DNA of 64,000 bases, taken from positions 1-64,000 of the forward strand of contig NKIB01009402.1 of the NCBI GenBank assembly GCA_002256025.1. The letters run 5' to 3'. The notes under the pieces are model-generated. The model was not told where the DNA came from and searched no databases. It saw nothing but the letters and a program-made list of their open reading frames with translations. Positions 1,780 through 13,473 of the stretch are shown piece by piece. Each line of letters starts with the position of its first letter. The stretch's first letter is position 1. Source of the DNA: Asterionella formosa. Its lineage: Eukaryota. A program made the translations under genes and the position numbers.

Positions 1780-2530
1780 AGTCACGACAAAAACTGTAGT
1801 CTTTAAGGTCATCAAAGGGAATACTTGGTTCACCGGATCGCACTAACAGGCATGGTTGTCACAACATAGTCATACCCTTGTTCGTTGCAAGGGGTTAAGG
1901 TAGTAGTTCAATTATTCCTGACATCCGTACAAAAGCCCGAATAAACAGAAGAGCACGATACTGTAATACTCTTTAAAGTAAAGAATGAATGAATTAAGAA
2001 CCAGTGGCCGATCCATAATAAAGAGTTATAGTCTAGATATATAGGATGTCATTGTTGACCGCGACAGTCAGAGACAACGTCATCATGAATCAAAAACTCG
2101 ATGAGTACAATGCTTTATTCGATTTTCTTTTCCTCCGACTGATCAATCGGTTTTTCGCCTTGCTCATCTTCGAACATCTTAATACCAAGATAGTAGCATA
2201 GGTATACCATCAAAGAAACAACCAGAATGAAATTGATAAGCTCCCAATCCAGTTTCATCGTAGCTGCTGCGTGCAATTTTTGCCGCCAACAAAGGAATGC
2301 AACTCAACTCTATAATTCAGGTTTCGTTTGAGGATACGAAACAGCAAGCAATAACCGTAATATTAGAAAGAAAAAATTAGATAAGGATTGTTTTACAAGT
2401 ATATATGAATAATACTAAAATATGATATACCCCCCGGTATTTACCGCGGTATTTATGATAGCTACAGTACGGTCGTGGGTTTTCCATTTTGCTTATAATA
2501 AAGCATTTTTACATATATATGTACATATAG

Positions 2531-2693
2531 GAAAAAGATATTTTGTCCGGTAGGGATCATTTTAGGGTTAGGGAGACGAAATATCGGAATACCGATACAT
2601 AGGAGGACAAAATATCTTTTTCTCAAAAGACGACCGCAAAAGAAGGAGCGAAACCCGGTTATAGGACTTTTTTCATTGGTGCGGCCGTCTTTT
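2531..2693. repeat. Two adjacent inverted-repeat pairs with a TTAGGG-type core; probable transposon end or MITE
   Basis: Perfect 18-bp IR GAAAAAGATATTTTGTCC (2531-2548) / GGACAAAATATCTTTTTC (2605-2622) encloses TTTAGGGTTAGGG. A second IR is AAAAGACGACCGCA (2625-2638) / TGCGGCCGTCTTTT (2680-2693). Related sequence occurs at about 13474-13620. Confidence 0.6.
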
Positions 2694-5600
2694 GCGAACT
2701 TCGCGTTCTTTTGCGCTTTTTTCGGAAAACGTGATACGAGGTCGATTTTAGATGAAACACAGTTTTTGTACGTGACTTTTCGTACTTCAGAGTTTCGGTC
2801 AACAACAGCACAAATCAAGGCGAGCAAAGACAGAGAAAAAGCAAAAGCTCTGATAATTCTCCAATTCTCCAGCTTACTACAACCCCCCCCCCTGATTTAA
2901 AATCATTCTGAATCAAATGGTGCATGTAATGTAAATGTTTTTAAGTATTCTAGAAAGTGTCAAACTTTACCTCGTCTTCTTGGCAACTTTTTCATAGAAT
3001 TGTGCTTGCCCCCTCCAGAGCGTTTGCTCTGGGCCCCCCATTTTCCCTGACCTAGCTAGTTAATTGACAACCACCAATAGGCATATGTTGGTGGTTTTGC
3101 ACTGAATGCAAAATGAGCTATTGAATCATCGATTGAGAAGGAAGCAATCATATTGTCTTTGTGAATTCAACAATCGATCATCCTGGCATGTGCCCTTGAT
3201 GTACCATAGCTAGTTTCCATTCACTTTTCCATTTTAGCTCTTTTGATCTTACTGTTGGCATCAATACATCCTGATACTTAAAAATAATTTTTGATCATTT
3301 ATTTTCTCATATCAAAGATATGATTTATCATATGCTCAATATGCATTTATCGAACAAATAGGATGTACTAGGCATGATCAAACTTTACAGATAATACTTT
3401 CTGGTCCTCGTCCTCCATTGCCTATAGATACCAATGTTAGGCTGTTTGCACGAGACCTTGTTTTGGCGTACCCTCCATCACCTGTAGATACCACCAATTT
3501 TAGTTTGATTGTACGAGCAAGTCTTATTGCTTACCCTCCATCATCTATAGATACCAATGTTAGCTTGTTTAAACAAGACCGTGTTAACAGTGTTCCAGAG
3601 TTAGTTGTTTCCATGTCAATGTTGTCATCGCATCATTGGTAGTAGTCAGGCAATGGCTTCCATATGAATGTTATCGTCACATCATCTCTTTTTTTTTCGG
3701 TTTTCATTTGTATTCTTGAGTTCATGAATCATCATGAGAACCAGTTTTTTGAGCTTCAAAGCGACAAAGAGCGGATGGAAAGAAGAGAGGTTGTCCGGGC
3801 CCTGCACAACTTTTACTTTGTTGCTGAGACTGATTCGACGGCTCCTTTATTTCAAAAGAAAAGTATATGTCTTTTATTTCCTGTACAAGAACGACGTTTC
3901 AAAGCGATTTTTAGGGGGTGCAAGGAGGCGCTGACAATGAGCAGGCAATGATGTGCATTGTCATGAATGAAGTCTCAAAACGAATTTATTCCATTTGTTC
4001 ATGAGGAAAAGGATGATACAAGTTTTACATGACAACATTTTCTAGAATCTTGGTATAATTGAAGCATCCTCCACATTGACGACCCTTGGACGATGGAATT
4101 GAAGGCTTGCAAACATTACACAAGATGTTGTTTGCAAGTCAACAATCACAAAACATAAGCCCCCACAAGTCATTTTGGAGCCAATTCAGATGCCATGAAA
4201 GCTTTCAAGCAATTCGGAATTGATGAGTATGAGTATGATTATGTGCATGAACATCTGTTTCTTACATTAGTTTCAAATTTGGGTTTCGAAATTGAAGGAT
4301 CTGCTGAGTGACGAAAGAATGCCCTGTTCTTAGAAAATTAATTGACAATAACACACATTTACCACAGATCAATCAAAACTTATTGAGTTACAAGGTTGAT
4401 TGCTTTAGTGGTCAAGAAAATTGGATTTAATCATAGTAATAACAATGCAATCTCTATGGTAGAATGCATATCATGTTGAAATTTTCGAGAACTGGAACTG
4501 CAATCATATGATGCGTCAATTCAAAGAAAAAATTGATGTTCTGAATAATGCATACAACTTATAAGTTTGTTAACCTATTCGATAGGTCATCAGGGCATTC
4601 CAATCAGCAACACCTGATGGATTGAATTCGCTCACTATTAATGAATAGAAGCAAGCTGTGGTGACAAGAATTCCATTATGATCCTTGAACAAGCAAGGAC
4701 CTTGATTTCTCAGAATCTATGACCCAAAACCGGCTGGGACAAACACAAATTTTTATTTTCCAGCCTGTTTAAATTGTTCCATTCTGGATGATTCCTGGTG
4801 AGCGACATTCATGCCGACATGATATCCATAGAAGGAAGTGCAACAAAAACACACCTCGAACTCGGTCGAAATCGATTGCTGAACTTCCTTCAAGAGAAAC
4901 ACCAAAGGTAGAAAAAAATGCGAGCTTCAGAATATTTATTCTTAGTATGAAATTGAAACTAGCTACAAGACAAGGAATATAGTAGCTAGCTAAGTCAAGA
5001 AGGAAAGCTGGGAAGACAAGGCGAAGGGGTTAATGCAAGCAAATCTTGTGAGGGAGAGTGTTGATTGATGGCAAGACCTTAGCCAGTACCTTACTTTACC
5101 ACTTTAACTGAACGGCAAGATGCACATTCAATCGTTGTCCCTTTACATTCCTCTTCTTTCTTGTGGAAGGAGCGAATACAATCATGATATGAGGAATGGG
5201 TTGATTTGAATGATAAGTTGCACCTTGGAAGTCGAAATATCCTTCAAGAAAGTCAGACATTGGCAATTTGCGAAAGTTTCAAGCAACACAACAATCAACA
5301 GATCAGCAGGGACAAGGAAAGCAACAAACGCATCATTGTATCTACAGATGTAGCCATGATGGAGGAATGGGAAACGCAATTCTCAGATGGATTGATTGGA
5401 GATCTACTTTTTATTCGCCAATTGCCTGCAAATTATCTAGCAAATGGGCGTTTTATCCATCAGATCGTCTAAGTACTCGCGCGGCGCCGCGGGTGGAGGG
5501 GGNNNNNNNNNNCCCCCCCCCAAATAATAGTTGCTAATCATTAATTCCTATTGCTATCATTTACCCTGCTTAAGAGCTAGGTCACTCACACTACCAAAAG

Positions 5601-5980
5601 CACCACCCATTGTCAATCAATTGTTGATTTAGCATTGCTAGTGGTTTTGTCATGGTTGATTGTGCTCGAGGGGTAATATTTCCAAAAAAAGCAAGGAGTA
5701 TGATAAAGTACTATATGCATTTGTTGAGAGACTCCACTAAAAGTTCGGTGAAACTCGAAGAAGAAGTTTTATCTATACGAAAACGGACCAAAACAACCCG
5801 GAAAAAAAAACATTTGACTACGGCAAAGGTTGCATTTGAATATCGGTAAGCGATTCATCCAAAACGTGTTGAGATGATGTCGAATCCAAAAGATCAACAA
5901 CCAGCTGTGCAATAAGTACAGGGTGAGCCTACGAGGAATTAATTGCTTGAAACAAATACCATGGTTGGTGCTCGTTTTAA
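2694..5980. mobile_element. Decayed repeat/TE-like region with fragmented ORFs and an assembly gap
   Basis: No intact long ORF over 3.3 kb, many stop-interrupted protein-like fragments, an IR-rich left flank and an N gap at 5503-5512 flanked by G and C runs. The family could not be identified by eye. Confidence 0.4.
3412..3585 (+). repeat. Three degenerate 60-63 bp tandem repeats
   Basis: Units start with cctcca..ctatagatacca at 3412, 3472 and 3535. The spacings are multiples of 3 and translate as PPxPIDTNxxLFxR. Confidence 0.8.
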
Positions 5981-6372
5981 CCCCATTTTTTAAAAAACCT
6001 TGTGAACATCCTGGTTCAAAGTCGGCTCTATGGTGTCATTTCAAAGCACCTGCTGAAGAATAATTTACCGGTACCTGGTACCACATACTGCATATAATGA
6101 TGGAATATATTCAGTTACGACTACCAGTACCGGTAGAGGCTAAATGTAAGGTCATTCCCATCAAACAATATTTTACTGGGTGTCGTATCTTTGCACCTAA
6201 CCTGATTCTATGGCATGGCTGTACCGGTAGAACTCCTTGATTGAAATTCCTCGTAAAAATCGCACCTCACGGTGACACATGATATGACAACCAAAACGAA
6301 ACAGGATAAAATAATAAGCATAACATATAATCCCTCGTGCTTCACTTTTGCACACCTCCTGAATAATCCATC

Positions 6373-6756
6373 ATGTCTACTGTTCCGTACGAAGTCAGCA
6401 TTGCTGAGGAATCTACCTCCATCTCTTCTGAAAAGAAGAAGAAGTCCAAGAAAGAAAAGAAGGACAAGAAAGAAAAGAAAGAGAAAAAGGAAAAAAAATC
6501 AGGTGTCCGTACCAAGTTTCTCTTGGAGTCATTGCGCCAGGACTACTACTCCTTGCAAGACGAGAACAATACTCTTCGGGAGATTATTCGCACCAAGCTT
6601 CCCATCGTGGCGGACGTTATCCTTGCCGAGTGCTGTCCACCAAGGATGAAGGTTTCTTCGATTGATGAACTTGGCGCAATGATGCCTGCTATGACCATTG
6701 AGGAGGGCGAAGAAGAAGAGGACGAAGATGACGAGGACGACGAAGACGACGAGTAA
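6373..6756 (+). CDS. Small protein: Lys/Glu tract, aureochrome/bZIP-type leucine zipper, acidic tail
   Basis: 127-aa ORF. VRTKFLLESLRQDYYSLQDENNTLREIIRTKLP resembles the zipper of stramenopile aureochrome/bZIP factors. Confidence 0.75.
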   Translation: MSTVPYEVSIAEESTSISSEKKKKSKKEKKDKKEKKEKKEKKSGVRTKFLLESLRQDYYSLQDENNTLREIIRTKLPIVADVILAECCPPRMKVSSIDELGAMMPAMTIEEGEEEEDEDDEDDEDDE

Positions 6757-7382
6757 ATCCAGTAAAACCATATCAGTCATCCGAGCCAAGTTGGGTGAAA
6801 TGGATAATTGATCTATAGAACCTTTTATTTGAACTGCCACTGTAGGCGTGTAATATTTGAAGTAAGGATCTCTGAAATTGACTTCAAGGTCTTTTATTGT
6901 TACTACTCCTCTCCAAAGATTTTTCATAGATTCCCTTTCTTGTCATTTCTGGAATCAATATGGAAACATTTCTTTCCCACACATATCATCACTTTGAGGC
7001 GAACAAGGCATAGACATCACTGTCGTCCAAATGAGTCAAGTACATGCTGATTCGGTCATTTCAGTAGTTGTGTTAAGTATTGTACCACAACAAAGATTAC
7101 TGGCACTATCGTGTATACATAAGAATAACTTTCAATGCTCCAACGAAAAGTGCATTTACAAACCGAGATAGGAAATTGTCCATATATGACAGTTGGTTGT
7201 TACTGAACAAAATTGTGTATCAACACGTTAATGCAAACTCTAGAAGTCTACAAGTTGCACCGATTCCACATTTTCAAGATATTCTGCCAAAAAAGAAAAC
7301 TGTAGACAGCAAACGTCGAAACATGGCATGATTTGGATCAACTCTTTCCAGAGCTATCTTCCAAGTATAATATATTCTTTGA

Positions 7383-9191
7383 TTATTTCTTGGATGCAAT
7401 GTACATGACATAGATCAAGTCACCGTCTTCATGTGCCTTTCGTCGCTTTTCATTCTTCTTCTGAATCATTATCCCTTGCCGCCATAGTCTAATCAGACGT
7501 TTCGTGGCGGGATACTTATGTCCAACTCGAAACTCAAGCCATCGTAACCCGTTGGCAAACCACTTAGTACGATCGAATCTCCATTTGCTCCACCACGACG
7601 CGGGAATGAAAAAGTCATCCACCAATTGAGGCATACTGTATTCTAATCCAAGATCACGAGTCACTTGAACAGTTAATCCGTAGGTTGTCAAAATGCCAAC
7701 CAACTCTGAATGTGTCAAATGGTCCTTCGTGTACCACGAACGTCGTGGTGATTGCCGTTCATGTTCTACTTCAATTCCACCGGCAGTATCATTTACCTGC
7801 AGTCGCGGAGAATGGATCACATCAGTCACAATAATTACAATCCCATTCATGACCAAGTGTTCAGTCAATTTTTTGAATTTTTCATTTGGAACTTGCAAAA
7901 TGTGCTCGACACAAAGAATGACATCGAATTTTTGTTGTTCAGGTAATTCCAATTGCGCCAAATCACGTTGAAAGAATGCTCGTCCGTCCAATTGGACGTC
8001 GTGTCGTTCCAGCAAATCCAAGGCTGTCTTAGTTTCGACTGGTGAAAAGGTAATACCTTCATAATCCAACCCATAATTATCAAACTTTCCGGGTAACATG
8101 GCGTAAAAGAAGGATCCCACCCCACAACCAACATCAAGAATACGAAATACATTCCCACTCACTCTCGCTGATAGAATTACTTGTCGAATCATCTGCATAA
8201 GTATCGAGTCTCCCAACCATTGCAACTCATGTGGATGATTTTTGTTTGATTGTATCTTATTTCGTTTACTCTTTCTTCGTGAATTGGTAGTCAGGACAGT
8301 GTGTGCAGCATAAGGGGCATGGCCCCATGGATCCATCTCTTGATGGCGACTTTTAATCTTGGCCATGTGCGTCATGATTTGTTGTCGACTTTCACGAGGG
8401 CATCGATTTATAGTACAAGACATGGATGGTGGTGTTTTTGCAAGATAATCTTTTAATAAAAACCAAGTCATGGCTTCACTGGTTTCACAGATGCGTTTAG
8501 AATTCAATGACGGCATTTCGTTGCACGGTACGAAATTTTTTCCATACTCCTGTTGATTCTCAATTCCAACAAATCCCAACACTTGAATGGTATGAATGAT
8601 GGAACGCAGAGATTGTATGACTGTTCCAGTGGCTGTTGCTCCCACAGCAAGAAGCAAACAGCACATTTGAAATCGAAAGTTTGATGCTCGACTAGTGATT
8701 CTCTGAAGTGCTTGCTTTCTCATTGTCATGGTAAAGAGTAGCAATTCTGATGGAGATGGCAGTGGATGATTATTTTTCGTTTGGTCTTGTCGTTGTTGCG
8801 CCATAATCAAACCTGACAAAAGGAGTGGTGTAATGGCTCGCCTCAACCTTTTTTCCGATTTCTTGTGATTGTTGCTTTGGCAGTCCTTTAGATATTCCAT
8901 TGCTTTTTGGAAAAGAAAGCCACTTGTTTTTAATAGGGACGATGTTTCCAATGGTTCCAAAAGCAATTTCTTATTCCCTGTTGCTTCTTCTAATCTTACA
9001 GCAAGGGCGATGACATGGTATGGATCTGGATCATCCCAATCAATGTTGTTGATGGTGTTGATATTGGCTGAGAGTGGAGTAGCAGTGCGACGGTTCTTAG
9101 TAACAGTAGGTTCAGCTGTACGTCTACTACTCAATTTACTAGTTCTAGCACTACGGGAAGGATCAAGAGGAGGACTGGTGGTGGTGGACAT
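7383..9191 (-). CDS. Class I SAM-dependent methyltransferase with long N-terminal, partly hydrophobic extension
   Basis: 602-aa ORF with motif I RILDVGCGVGS, YEGITFSP and FDVILCVEH. Confidence 0.8.
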   Translation of the reverse strand: MSTTTSPPLDPSRSARTSKLSSRRTAEPTVTKNRRTATPLSANINTINNIDWDDPDPYHVIALAVRLEEATGNKKLLLEPLETSSLLKTSGFLFQKAMEYLKDCQSNNHKKSEKRLRRAITPLLLSGLIMAQQRQDQTKNNHPLPSPSELLLFTMTMRKQALQRITSRASNFRFQMCCLLLAVGATATGTVIQSLRSIIHTIQVLGFVGIENQQEYGKNFVPCNEMPSLNSKRICETSEAMTWFLLKDYLAKTPPSMSCTINRCPRESRQQIMTHMAKIKSRHQEMDPWGHAPYAAHTVLTTNSRRKSKRNKIQSNKNHPHELQWLGDSILMQMIRQVILSARVSGNVFRILDVGCGVGSFFYAMLPGKFDNYGLDYEGITFSPVETKTALDLLERHDVQLDGRAFFQRDLAQLELPEQQKFDVILCVEHILQVPNEKFKKLTEHLVMNGIVIIVTDVIHSPRLQVNDTAGGIEVEHERQSPRRSWYTKDHLTHSELVGILTTYGLTVQVTRDLGLEYSMPQLVDDFFIPASWWSKWRFDRTKWFANGLRWLEFRVGHKYPATKRLIRLWRQGIMIQKKNEKRRKAHEDGDLIYVMYIASKK

Positions 9192-9653
9192 TATATATCA
9201 TGGTGTGTATGGTTGTTGTGAATTCCTGAATGATGCTGGTGTGATGAGATAGCTATTTGGTTGTCTGCCTTGCTGATCTCAACAAAACAATCACACAATG
9301 AAGATGTACAGTATCTTAATAATAGGAATTGGCATTGATTTATACATACACATGCATAAACACAATCCAATATACCGGTATTGGTATGTACATACCGGTA
9401 TACCTGGTTCAAAATTACCGGTAGTATGATACCAGCAATAGACCATGATCATTCCAGCAACGGTACCAGGTACCGGTACAGAAATTGGAAAGCCAGCAGC
9501 ATACGATTTGTGTATCATCGTATAAAGAGAATGCCTCATTCTCGTCCAAAATCTTGACGCAGCACGCACCACACTGCATCGCTATAAATGACTCCACACC
9601 TTGTCATTGTCATTGATGAGAGTTGTTGTTGTTATTATTAGGAAGTATTACAT

Positions 9654-12576
9654 ATGATGTGGGGTGATCCAGAGGTGAGTGTATGTGTTTTGCAGGAGAA
9701 AGCAGTAAAGGTAAAACTAGTAGACTATAATCCATTATCACACAATGGAAGCCAACATGTCATGGAACATTCCTTTTCTCACGAATCGTCGGTTTGCTTA
9801 CTAATTCTAGACAGCCGCCAGCCTTACTCCTGCCAATGGTAACAGTGATTCCTTATCACTGCTTTTGCTCCAAGTGACAGGACCTGCTCATATACCATGG
9901 AACGATCCACGATGGCAAGAATTATTGCTTGCCTACGATGTTTGGGTCCATGTGGATCATAATCGATTGATGAACGATGATTTGATTACCATGGCTTGTA
10001 CGAGTATGGCCAAACATGCCATCATGTCATCCAACCTGGCATCGTTGGCATGGCATGTTGCTAGAATGACCAAGGAATGGGCCATGGCACTACTACCAGT
10101 GGTCGAAAATGATATTGATGATGAAACAGCCACTGCTGCAACAGCAATGACACGAGGTAATTATTATGCAAACAACAACAGCTACAACAACGACAACAAT
10201 TCAACAACAACTTCTTCATTATTTACGAATCAGATTGCTCTTGTAGGAAAAGCAAGAGCAACGGCAGGTGCCATGCATCTGTTAAGGATATTCATACACG
10301 ACATTGACCCTACAACATTGGGAGACGTCTTGGTATATACCAGTCGGGATGTGTCAGACAAGGACCATTTCAAGCAATCTGGACAGGAATTGATTGGAGC
10401 GCTACTGACGTTACTATCCATTATAGGCCCAATGACAGAGCCATTGGAACGAGTACCAGAGATTTATGATGCAACAGTTAATTGCTTGGAATTATTGATT
10501 GTCCTTTTGTCCACACAGCTCTATCAACCAATGCTGTCGAGTACACAAAAAAGGAAGCAAAAAAGGAAGAACGTTGATGATATTCAAAGGAATCAAAATT
10601 ATGTTTTAGATTACATTATGGAGCAAGCTCAACAAAAGCGACATCATAACCCAAACTCACATCATCATCACAATCATGTCCTTACATGGACACCACAATC
10701 CATTTTACAAACATGTTTGCTATGGATTAACCAACGACCCAAGGCTCCTGAAAGATCCATTTCCTTTCATATGGCATATTTGGCAGAATCAGTTGTCGAA
10801 GCCAAGGGAACCAAAAAAGGACCAGATGGTATGTACGAAACACACATGTTGGTACTTGCCGAAAAGCCATTCCATAAAAACAATAATGCTCCACACGAAC
10901 AATCCGCCATGCTCTCATCACCACGCCAACGGTCCTCATCCGTACTCCTTGATGCTACTCGAGGTGTCTTGGTATTGTCATCAAGTATATTATTATTACC
11001 ATTTAGATTGATGAACTTGGCATTGGGATTGTTGGGGAGAAGAAAAGGACCAAATTATGATACGACAAGGAAAGAACATTTTGCTGTTGCCAGACCATCT
11101 GGACGGACCAATGATGTGTTGTGGTTGACGAAATCACCCGTGGCGGATTTAACAAGCGCGCTTTTGTTGTTGCTGATTAACAATTATCGAGTTCACGCCG
11201 CAGTCGGGAAGAATGCTAATACTGGGGTGGTCAACCCATTTCGGGCAGAATTGGCCTCCTTAAATGACAATCGATGGGATGAACCAAGTGACCCATTGGC
11301 CACGGAGAATCATCAACATCACACTACCGAAGTCACCTCACTGAATAGCTGTAGAACCCCTACGTCCAAACAACTCTTGACGACGAACTTTGAAGACCTC
11401 TTTGTTTCGTTTGGGTCCATCGTCCATACTGAAGTTGGTGCTCTACTTCTCTACTCGTTGTTCCAATCTTCCCCAATTTTCGCCGCATCTGTGGCAGTTC
11501 GATCTGATTTGGACACGTTGGTATTGCCATTGTTAAGAACACTTTACTTTGCATCCTCTCCGAAGTACTATTCCGGCAGTATGCAGGCAGGGCGCATCAC
11601 CCAAGACGGATCTACTGTTTCGATTAGAAATTGTCCTTTTCGAAGTTCGTCTCAACTGTATGTTATAATGATTCTGCTACTGTTATTCTCTCAAGACGCA
11701 TCCTTTGGTCCCGACGCCTTTCGTCGCGTTACTGTTGCGACAGTACCTTGGCATAAGGAGAGGATGCTGAAAAACGTTTCCTTGGGGTCACTGATTTTGT
11801 TGACTCTCTTACGAGCAATCGTGTTTAATCTGAATCGATTGCAAGATGGGTTCCTATTGAGCAATTGTTGTGCGGTATTGATGAACCTTTCTCCTCATGT
11901 AGTGCAGCTGAATGACTATGCTGCCATGAGACTGGCTTCTGTTACTGCATCATTCGTGAAGAAGTATGCTGCCATGGTGACCAAGAATGGTGGTAAAAAG
12001 GAACCACAAGACGATCTTTCATCGCTCATGGGCATGTACGGTGAAGTTTCACGGACTTTGCTTCGTTTGATTCAACATTGCACGTCACCACGCAATATTG
12101 ACAAGAATTCAAATCTGGTATATGCACTAGTATATCATCAGACGGACTTCAAAGTTGCATTTTCAAAAAAGGACGTTACATTTGATAAAAAAGAAACCTT
12201 GCGGGTACAGATGGTAATCGAAATGGCTGACAAGTTAATTCAGGATAATGGAGAAGCTCGGACAGCACCTAAAGCTCTCAAGGTACTGCGTGAGTCCATG
12301 GAAGCTCTAAAAGAAGCCGCCAAGGGTAGCCTTGAAAAGGAAGAAAGTGACTTTACCTTTAGCTATGAAGAAGAAGCTGATCCAGAAATTTTCTTTGTGC
12401 CTTATATTTGGGAGGTAATCGTTTGTGTCCTTACTTCCAGCACTATCGATTGGGATTCCAGTCGGATTAAAGTGTTTCCGTTGTTAGAAGAGGAGATCAT
12501 CGCTGGGACTGTTGATGATGACGTGACAACTGCATCGGCATTGTTGTATTCAGGGGACGTTGACGACGTTGTGTAA
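9654..12576 (+). CDS. DYM: Dymeclin (Dyggve-Melchior-Clausen syndrome protein family)
   Basis: Exon 1 is 9654-9674 (MMWGDPE), followed by a GTGAGT...CTAG intron at 9675-9810. Exon 2 (9811-12576) is in frame with the 903-aa ORF. Dymeclin-like motifs: RSDLDTLVLPLL, LYVIMILLLLFSQD, NCCAVLMNLS, NLVYALVY, FSYEEEADPEIFFVPYIW. Confidence 0.9.
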
Positions 12577-12670: not shown

Positions 12671-13213
12671 TCACCAATTATATTGCCATTTGGAGGAATC
12701 GCCCCCAAGTCGTTCTCGAATCGCACTCGCCGAGTCTCCGGCATCCACCTTTGTTAAACTATCCGAATGCATCTTCCCTTGATCCTTGATAGCTTGCAAA
12801 ATAGAATTAATGTTCGTCTCTAGTACCATGCCTCCCATAACAATCTCGTCTAGGACATAATGTACTCGGTCAGAATGAAAAATCAAGTCCAGCTCGCACA
12901 CATTTTCAAAGCATTTGTCCAATGCTTCCACAAAGACCTGAATCAAATCCAAAATACCCAAATCAGATTCTTGTTGATCTACGGCAAATACAAAATATAG
13001 CGTCGCATAGTGTCTGTAAATGAGCTTGATATTATCTCCCCATTCCGGAATGCTGCCCTCTAGATAATTGCAGAAGCTGTCTGGTCGTTGCGAGACTTGT
13101 TGGAAGATGCGACGAATGACGTGCTGCTGTTTTTCTTCGGATGTTACAGACTGATAAAACTTGACCAGTCGTGGCTTCCCGTGGTTGTTGACGATTATAA
13201 TTCCTTTGATCAT
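12671..13213 (-). CDS. AP3S: AP-3 adaptor complex sigma subunit
   Basis: MIKGIIIVNNHGKPRLVKFY, YRHYATLYF, ESDLGILDLIQVFVEALDKCFENVCELDLIFH. The start is placed at the conserved Met at 13213 rather than the longer ORF start. Confidence 0.93.
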   Translation of the reverse strand: MIKGIIIVNNHGKPRLVKFYQSVTSEEKQQHVIRRIFQQVSQRPDSFCNYLEGSIPEWGDNIKLIYRHYATLYFVFAVDQQESDLGILDLIQVFVEALDKCFENVCELDLIFHSDRVHYVLDEIVMGGMVLETNINSILQAIKDQGKMHSDSLTKVDAGDSASAIRERLGGDSSKWQYNW

Positions 13214-13473
13214 TTTTCGCTGTCGAAGAGGGTCTATTATAGTTGACGGGTCGACTGCGGTATGATGGAAGCAATGGCGATGATACGATTCAAACTTGCG
13301 GTATTCTGTAGATGTTGAATAATACGAGTACCGGCAGTAGCTAGTACTGGAGTTTGACGATTCAATGATTCGGTGTCGCCGAGGCTGAGGCCTGAGGACG
13401 ACGCTGGTGCTGCTGACGATGAATGGTGAAACTGGGAGCCTGGAGTACCTTACTGGTACCATGGGGGTCTATG

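Follow-up and report, generated by a model that had tools for sequence, protein, structure and literature searches.

Introduction

The principal transcription factors for blue light in diatoms are the aureochromes. CHOP/DDIT3 (GADD153) is a mammalian basic leucine zipper (bZIP) protein with helix-breaking substitutions in its basic region, which acts by heterodimerising with intact members of its family. The LITTLE ZIPPER (ZPR) proteins of plants are microProteins derived from the zippers of HD-ZIPIII factors, a microProtein being a small protein of one domain that is related to a multi-domain factor and acts by forming heterodimers with this factor. Id proteins have a helix-loop-helix (HLH) fold without a basic region and act through dimerisation, and in the designed A-ZIP dominant negatives an acidic extension grips the basic region of the partner. 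Here we describe a gene for a small zipper protein of 127 amino acids in the diatom Asterionella formosa, located at 6373..6756 on the forward strand of a stretch of 64,000 nucleotides (positions 1 to 64,000 of contig NKIB01009402.1, assembly GCA_002256025.1; "the window" below). An original prediction, made from the sequence alone, had presented it as an aureochrome-type zipper without basic region or light-oxygen-voltage (LOV) domain and as a candidate dominant-negative microProtein. It is near certain that this protein descended from an aureochrome-type bZIP, of which it keeps the zipper and the first helix of the linker between bZIP and LOV domain, whereas the base-reading residues have been lost and no LOV domain is present.

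One article states that all 10 PtAUREO homo- and heterodimers form in vitro, that under blue light the LOV module dimerises and the affinity for DNA increases, and that few other partners of aureochromes are known (PMC10967249). N-x2-H-x4-R is given as the aureochrome-specific signature of the basic region, with H268 as the aureochrome-specific histidine, in a second source (10.1101/2022.05.19.492614). In potato, the mini-TGA protein StTGA2.1, which is without a full bZIP, binds full-length relatives, shows no detectable interaction with DNA and, jointly with one of these relatives, is reported to switch on a target gene (PMC10022624).

Homology of the small zipper protein to aureochromes

The complete coding sequence (6373..6756, forward strand; 127 codons and a stop) is apparently a single exon, as read from genomic DNA, and the reading frame, the peptide, the (EKK)n tract (residues 21-42) and the Asp/Glu tail (residues 109-127) are exactly as first described. 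As reference for the register, P0121 was used, a 487-amino-acid protein with bZIP and LOV domains that represents a class-I-type aureochrome. In a single BLASTP comparison, residues 25-88 of the small protein align with residues 254-317 of P0121 without gaps, with 26/64 identities (41 %) and an E-value of 2e-14. Comparison by hhalign of an alignment of 80 short relatives (A2, see below) with an alignment of 30 aureochromes (A3) gave a probability of 98.7 %, an E-value of 3.4e-16 and 49 % identity over 51 columns. The zipper is therefore of the aureochrome type, as predicted, and the aureochrome consensus given with that prediction matches the real bZIP and LOV proteins retrieved.

When a profile made from A2 was run over 1.84 billion representative proteins, 252 matches at E<=1e-3 were obtained, 40 of them at E<=1e-10 and 8 at E<=1e-30, with matches to proteins having bZIP and PAS_9 domains lying at E-values of 1e-13 to 1e-8. 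A Pfam scan covered 56 of the best 150 of these 252 matches. A bZIP_1 or bZIP_2 model was present in 37/56, and 25 of these 37 had PAS_9 too, which is the aureochrome architecture; the remaining 19/56 were basic-less and contained neither a bZIP model (0/19) nor PAS_9 (0/19). The canonical matches have a median length of 383 amino acids.

From S272 to C316 the 30 aureochromes share 13 invariant residues, of which the small protein keeps 11 (S43, R46, F49, E52, L54, L61, N65, L68, R69, P77 and C87), the two exceptions being R273, replaced by G44, and Q284, replaced by R55. None of the six invariant residues further upstream (R262, R264, N265, R266, H268 and A269) is kept (0/6). In the register of P0121, the base-reading positions Asn265 and Arg273 are occupied by K36 and G44, so that the N-x7-R signature is absent, as the original prediction had said, and the more specific N-x2-H-x4-R is likewise lacking, with K36, K39 and G44 standing at its three positions. 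The leucine heptad register is present, L54, L61 and L68 being found at +10, +17 and +24 from position 44. The proline that ends the zipper and the cysteine C316, both invariant in the 30 aureochromes, are aligned to P77 and C87. Homology was thus found for the aureochrome zipper and also for the start of the bZIP-LOV linker, and since it extends past the zipper into the linker helix, the nearest relatives are aureochrome-type bZIPs and not bZIPs in general. Judged from these comparisons, the likeness to aureochromes is homology, far beyond chance. C-terminal to the zipper there is no LOV domain of the PAS_9 type, the reading frame ending at residue 127 in the acidic tail, and no PAS model was matched in Pfam, in agreement with what had been claimed. 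The protein is not an aureochrome, as it has neither LOV nor N-x2-H-x4-R, and by the Pfam definition it falls outside the bZIP domain family, as it lacks the signature and stays below the gathering threshold.

Architecture and predicted structure

The N-terminal segment (residues 1-20, 6373..6432; this and all following parts lie on the forward strand) is variable in the family alignment and predicted to be disordered, with a predicted local distance difference test (pLDDT) value of 44-45 in AlphaFold2 (AF2). It is followed by a Lys-rich low-complexity tract (residues 21-42, 6433..6498) with a net charge of +11, which in the BLASTP alignment stands in register with the basic region of aureochromes and contains none of its base-reading residues. 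Among the 80 family members, the 20 residues preceding Ser-Gly contain a median of 55 % K+R; the tract may serve as a nuclear-localisation signal or for unspecific contact with nucleic acids. The original statement that the basic region is missing holds for the base-reading residues, which are gone, but the region was not simply deleted, as the Lys-rich tract lies in register and S43, R46 and K48 are kept.

At the invariant Ser43-Gly44 (6499..6504) the helix starts; the serine corresponds to the conserved serine of the aureochrome basic region and the glycine takes the place of the arginine of N-x7-R. The leucine-zipper helix (residues 45-76, 6505..6600) comprises three Leu heptads and is supported by BLASTP, hhalign, the column comparison described below and AF2. 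Its d positions are held by L54, L61 and L68, its a positions by L51, Y58, N65 and I72, and E64-R69 form a g-e' pair. Pro77 and a short second helix ending in Cys87-Cys88 follow (6601..6636); its homologue in aureochromes is the helix with which the bZIP-LOV linker begins, the alignment being ungapped up to ECC. The cysteine just after the zipper (Cys87-Cys88, 6631-6636; aureochrome C316) is invariant in the short family and in the 30 aureochromes, and for a Vaucheria aureochrome one report describes redox-dependent bZIP dimerisation via cysteines (PMC4937327). Next comes a block conserved specifically in the family (residues 89-108, 6637..6696), with the motifs KVSSIDEL and MMP and a third short helix, for which no aureochrome counterpart was found in the family alignments. 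The protein ends in an acidic tail (residues 109-127, 6697..6753), in which 17/19 residues are Asp or Glu and which is predicted to be disordered.

The AF2 model obtained with A2 shows helices at residues 45-75, 80-87 and 97-103, with pLDDT values of 84-94 over residues 41-90 and of 73 over residues 101-110; neither the Lys-rich tract nor the tail is predicted as a helix, and confidence is low for both. The same method applied to the aureochrome P0121 predicts one helix (255-304) running through basic region and zipper and then a helix at 309-317. At an offset of +229 the two models coincide, save for the basic-region helix (255-273), which is missing in the small protein, where the helix begins after Ser-Gly. 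Comparison of the AF2 model with the PDB by Foldseek gave no match at E<=10, and the family profile gave no significant match to solved structures, those found being a pleckstrin-homology-like protein (E 0.095), Atg3 (E 0.3), Zta (0.56) and GCN4 (0.68). In the ESM Atlas the protein falls into its own cluster (0.92), and the next neighbours are bZIP clusters at 0.83-0.87, which is below the 0.9 level and serves as a lead only.

A conserved family of short proteins

The search among proteins of similar length revealed 80 relatives at E<=7e-11, all of 91-164 amino acids and none with a precomputed Pfam domain, so that conserved short orthologues, as anticipated, do exist. Two further relatives are marginal (P0082, P0083). 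The alignment A2 comprises 80 sequences, P0075, which has an odd insertion, P0082 and P0083 having been left out, and it has 15 invariant columns (S43, G44, R46, T47, K48, F49, E52, S53, R55, Y59, L61, E64, N65, L68 and C87). The median length in the family is 105 amino acids. Named members belong to the diatoms Grammatophora, Asterionellopsis, Stauroneis and Entomoneis, and further members come from the dinoflagellate Kryptoperidinium, which harbours a diatom endosymbiont, and from one foraminifer record. Six relatives, all of them short, derive from a marine transcriptome collection (MMETSP, a project on poly-A transcriptomes); their labels give them as complete open reading frames (ORFs), with one label incomplete. 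Because complete short ORFs occur in diatom transcriptomes, the short ORF in these relatives is the whole message, with no basic region or LOV domain spliced in, and for the relatives the supposition that there are no further exons is borne out. A database translation of 225 amino acids (P0239), considered as a longer form, merely reads through the 5' leader and has no basic motif. Longer proteins were also searched for fused forms with residues 41-110, and none of 51 candidates was matched at E<=10, which is weak evidence.

These data bear on the question whether 6373..6756 is a functional gene at all, or a chance ORF, a decaying aureochrome fragment or one exon of a larger gene. Such an origin might be suspected from the low-complexity repeats that make up about one third of the ORF, an AAG-rich imperfect tandem DNA repeat (6432-6498) encoding the Lys-rich tract and another imperfect tandem repeat (6703-6752) encoding the acidic tail. 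It is hardly credible in view of the 80 relatives of similar length with their 15 invariant columns, of the complete short ORFs in transcriptome assemblies of several diatoms and, as a weaker point, of the lack of a fused form among the longer proteins searched. In addition, an in-frame TAA (6364-6366, forward strand), read from the sequence two codons 5' of the ATG, closes the frame upstream, and as no AG acceptor is present between this TAA and the ATG, an upstream exon could join only within the ORF. As a hint only, 11 unmapped RNA runs from 8 studies contain 20-39 % of the sampled words of a stretch of 1681 bases (5700-7380) around the gene. The runs sharing words with this stretch are mostly metatranscriptomes from freshwater, lakes and estuaries and, being unmapped, are not evidence of habitat.

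A wider basic-less lineage

When the best 150 of the 252 profile matches were classified by register, 44 were basic-less, 82 canonical, 23 unanchored by the pattern and 1 cut, and basic-less proteins made up 36 of the first 40 rows. Beyond the short family there are basic-less forms of 200-300 amino acids, one of them from the centric diatom Minutocellus. Longer basic-less paralog classes of 136-499 amino acids (P0110/P0113/P0117/P0128/P0129; P0111/P0114/P0115; P0101/P0103/P0106/P0109; P0108; P0137; P0184) have the same Ser-Gly and zipper core, no N-x7-R and conserved C-terminal motifs of their own, and one of these classes comes from Minutocellus. A weak SnoaL-like match was seen in a basic-less protein of 499 amino acids, and the weak match of P0108 is to SnoaL_2. 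P0084 (1245 amino acids; cluster mates P0244 with 943 and P0245 with 1728 amino acids) contains 9 anchored (11 matched by hidden Markov model) tandem basic-less zipper modules, each with its own proline and second helix; it may act as a scaffold of many zippers or have arisen by fusion of a tandem array of genes.

For trees of the lineage, truncated-looking sequences (P0097, P0099, P0100, P0102 and P0116) were omitted, as were rows sharing more than 80 % identity with one that was retained. In the tree from 46 columns, 41 basic-less rows lie on one side of a branch and 66 canonical rows on the other (support 97/85). Without the Gly/Arg column, 2 changes are required on the best tree, and a tree with a single clade is not rejected (p-AU, from the approximately unbiased test, 0.405). 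A single origin of the basic-less lineage is possible on the basis of these alignments.

The zipper interface and the proposed mechanism

Columns of the zipper were compared between the 80 family members and 83 canonical segments. Leucine at the three d positions is common to both groups (canonical columns 83/83, 82/83 and 83/83), as are the central asparagine at a (family 80/80, canonical 82/83), the glutamate at g (80/80 and 73/83) and the following arginine at e' (79/80 and 68/83). In both groups a polar fourth d position is followed by Leu or Ile and then by Pro. This shared pattern of predicted interface residues is compatible with pairing to aureochromes.

As the most likely mechanism we infer, with a probability of about 0.45, the formation of dimers between the small protein and aureochrome-type bZIPs that have only a single reading arm. 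The small protein would be nuclear, and its zipper would pair with the closely matching zippers of aureochromes or of other aureochrome-type bZIPs. The resulting dimer would have one DNA-reading arm instead of two, and binding to the palindromic aureo box (TGACGT) would thereby be weakened or changed, so that the abundance of the small protein would determine the amount of aureochrome available for productive dimers. Because both zippers are short, with three Leu heptads, light-driven pairing of LOV modules should favour aureochrome homodimers, and the small protein would hold aureochromes back mainly in the dark.

Modelling of a complex with an aureochrome, which the original prediction had put forward, was carried out for residues 30-108 of the small protein and residues 252-325 of P0121 as stand-in partner, alignments not being used. 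Three runs gave scores of 0.38, 0.41 and 0.38, compared with 0.00 for all three controls, for which the verdict is 'weak support'; the runs agree in at least 75 % of the contacts, and the pLDDT of the partner is at least 65. In the calibration, the mark was reached by 51/78 solved complexes and by 2/108 mismatches, and scores of 0.60 or below included only 5/78 solved complexes but all 4 passing mismatches (of 180).

Several observations weigh against pairing with aureochromes. The score of 0.38 falls within a range in which a pass is false more often than true, and the pass may reflect a memory of solved bZIP dimers. The partner employed is an aureochrome from another organism, and the controls are unrelated proteins rather than other zippers, so that the score says nothing on partner specificity. 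At a cut-off as permissive as E<=10, the 127-amino-acid protein matches neither a bZIP nor a PAS model in Pfam and gives sub-threshold low-complexity matches only. No TGACGT is present from 2083 to 10405, the nearest sites being at 2077 and 10406, and the promoter of the gene is therefore without this element. Simple titration accounts neither for the conserved C-terminal block nor for the acidic tail. Finally, the zipper has residues that are private to the family: in addition to G44 (80/80; Arg in 83/83 canonical segments), these are T47 (80/80; canonical K in 82/83), R55 (80/80; canonical Q in 80/83), Y58 (77/80; canonical V in 69/83), which occupies a core a position, and Y59 (80/80, at a position variable in canonical segments).

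With regard to the aureo box, the window contains 29 copies of TGACGT, 27.8 being expected. Feedback through this element was considered as a regulatory tie and rejected, as the count is near expectation and the interval given above is free of it; nothing in cis ties the gene to aureochrome control.

The private invariant residues indicate, at the level of sequence, that the family is under a constraint of its own, and they may reflect an altered choice of partner. T47, R55, Y58 and Y59 could equally mean a private homodimer. In that case the protein would be self-contained, with a zipper retuned by Y58, Y59 and R55 to pair with itself, and would have a function unrelated to aureochromes, exerted through the Lys-rich tract and the acidic tail; it might, for instance, be an unspecific factor associated with chromatin, the nucleolus or RNA, or one resembling a histone chaperone. 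Such a role would agree with the (near-)invariance of G44 and the four other residues in the family, unlike in aureochromes, with the conserved C-terminal block and acidic tail, which aureochromes do not have, and with the diversification of the basic-less lineage, whose paralog classes with C-terminal motifs of their own and whose protein of 9-11 modules suggest own functions. However, the interface pattern, with Asn at a, Leu at d and the E-R g-e' pair, is as in aureochromes, the zippers of aureochromes pair promiscuously according to PMC10967249, and no family or fold match to another function was found, Pfam yielding sub-threshold low-complexity matches only and Foldseek none. We regard self-pairing as fairly unlikely.

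Even if dimers with aureochrome-type bZIPs form, the outcome need not be a loss of binding. Such a dimer might stay on DNA via its one arm and the Lys-rich tract, the acidic tail providing an activation surface or the choice of sites being altered, which would make the small protein a positive cofactor or specificity modifier. CHOP-C/EBP dimers bind alternative sites. The acidic tail is conserved, the last 20 residues containing a median of 50 % D+E in the 80 family members, and it ends in Tyr or Phe in 38/80; R46 and K48 at the junction of basic region and zipper are kept in 80/80 each; and the potato mini-TGA offers a precedent of a truncated bZIP that activates its target with a full-length relative (PMC10022624). 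On the other hand, the Asterionella protein itself ends in Glu and not in an aromatic residue, and the Lys-rich tract is variable in length and sequence and predicted to be disordered. A role as positive cofactor appears unlikely.

Returning to dimers with a single reading arm as the preferred mechanism, 'modulator' is a safer term for the zipper protein than the 'dominant-negative' of the original prediction, because G44, T47, R55, Y58, Y59, the C-terminal block and the acidic tail exceed what a passive decoy needs. In a more elaborate version, a whole layer of basic-less zippers, consisting of the family of about 105 amino acids, the longer paralogs and the protein of 9-11 modules, might buffer blue-light signalling. 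In the dark it would capture aureochrome monomers, with the C-terminal part folding back and the acidic tail covering the basic arm of the partner as a DNA mimic, like a natural A-ZIP; in blue light, LOV-LOV dimerisation would out-compete the small protein and free aureochromes for productive dimers. Taken as a whole this scenario is quite improbable; if true, it would give a sharper light switch.

Genomic context

According to tblastn, the 64-kb window holds a single copy of the zipper-protein gene. Two overlapping reading frames, an Arg/Lys-rich reading of the AAG repeat in another frame (6284..6649, forward strand, 121 amino acids) and an antisense frame (6529..6927, reverse strand, 132 amino acids), have no support from relatives and are not considered coding. 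An assembly gap of ten N is found at 5503-5512, about 860 bases upstream of the gene. Neighbouring ORFs encode a Bax-inhibitor-1 family protein (715-1779, forward), a protein with an S-adenosylmethionine (SAM)-dependent methyltransferase domain (7383-9191, reverse), a dymeclin homologue (9970-12576, forward) and a clathrin-adaptor small chain (12671-13462, reverse). All four are ordinary eukaryotic housekeeping genes with no evident tie to the zipper protein.

Discussion

The small protein shares with class-I-type diatom aureochromes such as P0121 the zipper and first linker helix, which align without gaps at 41-52 % identity in the same heptad register, and also the central Asn at a, the E-R g-e' pair, the proline that ends the zipper and the conserved cysteine. 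It differs from them in having no N-x2-H-x4-R, no LOV domain and no long N-terminal region, in its length of 127 amino acids compared with a median of 383, and in its own T47, R55, Y58 and Y59, C-terminal block and acidic tail.

Like CHOP, it is a natural bZIP relative with a disabled basic region. CHOP, however, belongs to another bZIP lineage, was not matched in the profile search of the PDB and has a transactivation domain as well as a basic region that can still be recognised, whereas the small protein has a low-complexity Lys-rich tract at that place. With the ZPR proteins and the mini-TGA, which act through heterodimers without binding DNA, it has in common that it is small, related to larger transcription factors and retains the dimerisation part, while presumably lacking DNA binding. 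ZPR and mini-TGA proteins arose independently in other families, and mini-TGA keeps a large C-terminal domain. Id proteins follow the same logic of a dimerisation helix without a working basic arm, but with a different fold (HLH). A-ZIPs also combine a dimerisation helix lacking a basic arm with an acidic stretch, which is found in the short family too; in A-ZIPs the acidic extension replaces the basic region N-terminally, whereas in the small protein some 30 residues separate the zipper from the acidic tail on its C-terminal side, and the N-terminal side is basic. The Zta protein (BZLF1) of Epstein-Barr virus occupies rows 3, 4 and 6 of the 8 matches to solved structures, G44 being aligned on an invariant Arg of Zta and the alignment continuing past the short zipper into the segment behind it. 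The C-terminal tail of Zta folds back on its zipper. The match is not significant (E 0.56), and Zta has a working basic region.

With its 127 amino acids, its relatedness to a larger multi-domain protein and the interaction domain as the only one retained, the small protein is, as far as its sequence goes, a microProtein by structural criteria, the defining interaction being a prediction. No paper describing a zipper-only or basic-region-less relative of aureochromes in diatoms was found by full-text searches of the literature; lists of blue-light-responsive genes in supplementary files may contain orthologues. In a 2026 survey, a protein counts as an aureochrome if it is matched first by a LOV model and next by Pfam bZIP models (PMC13737086), and as the short family matches neither, surveys so defined would miss it.

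A conserved and abundant family of small proteins that carries an aureochrome-type zipper without a DNA-reading arm is a concrete candidate for a partner of aureochromes. If the binding is true, the small protein would be a natural zipper-only regulator of a photoreceptor and a ready-made tool to damp aureochrome-based optogenetic switches; if the binding fails, it would still represent a strongly conserved family of diatom proteins that descends from bZIPs and has so far gone undescribed.

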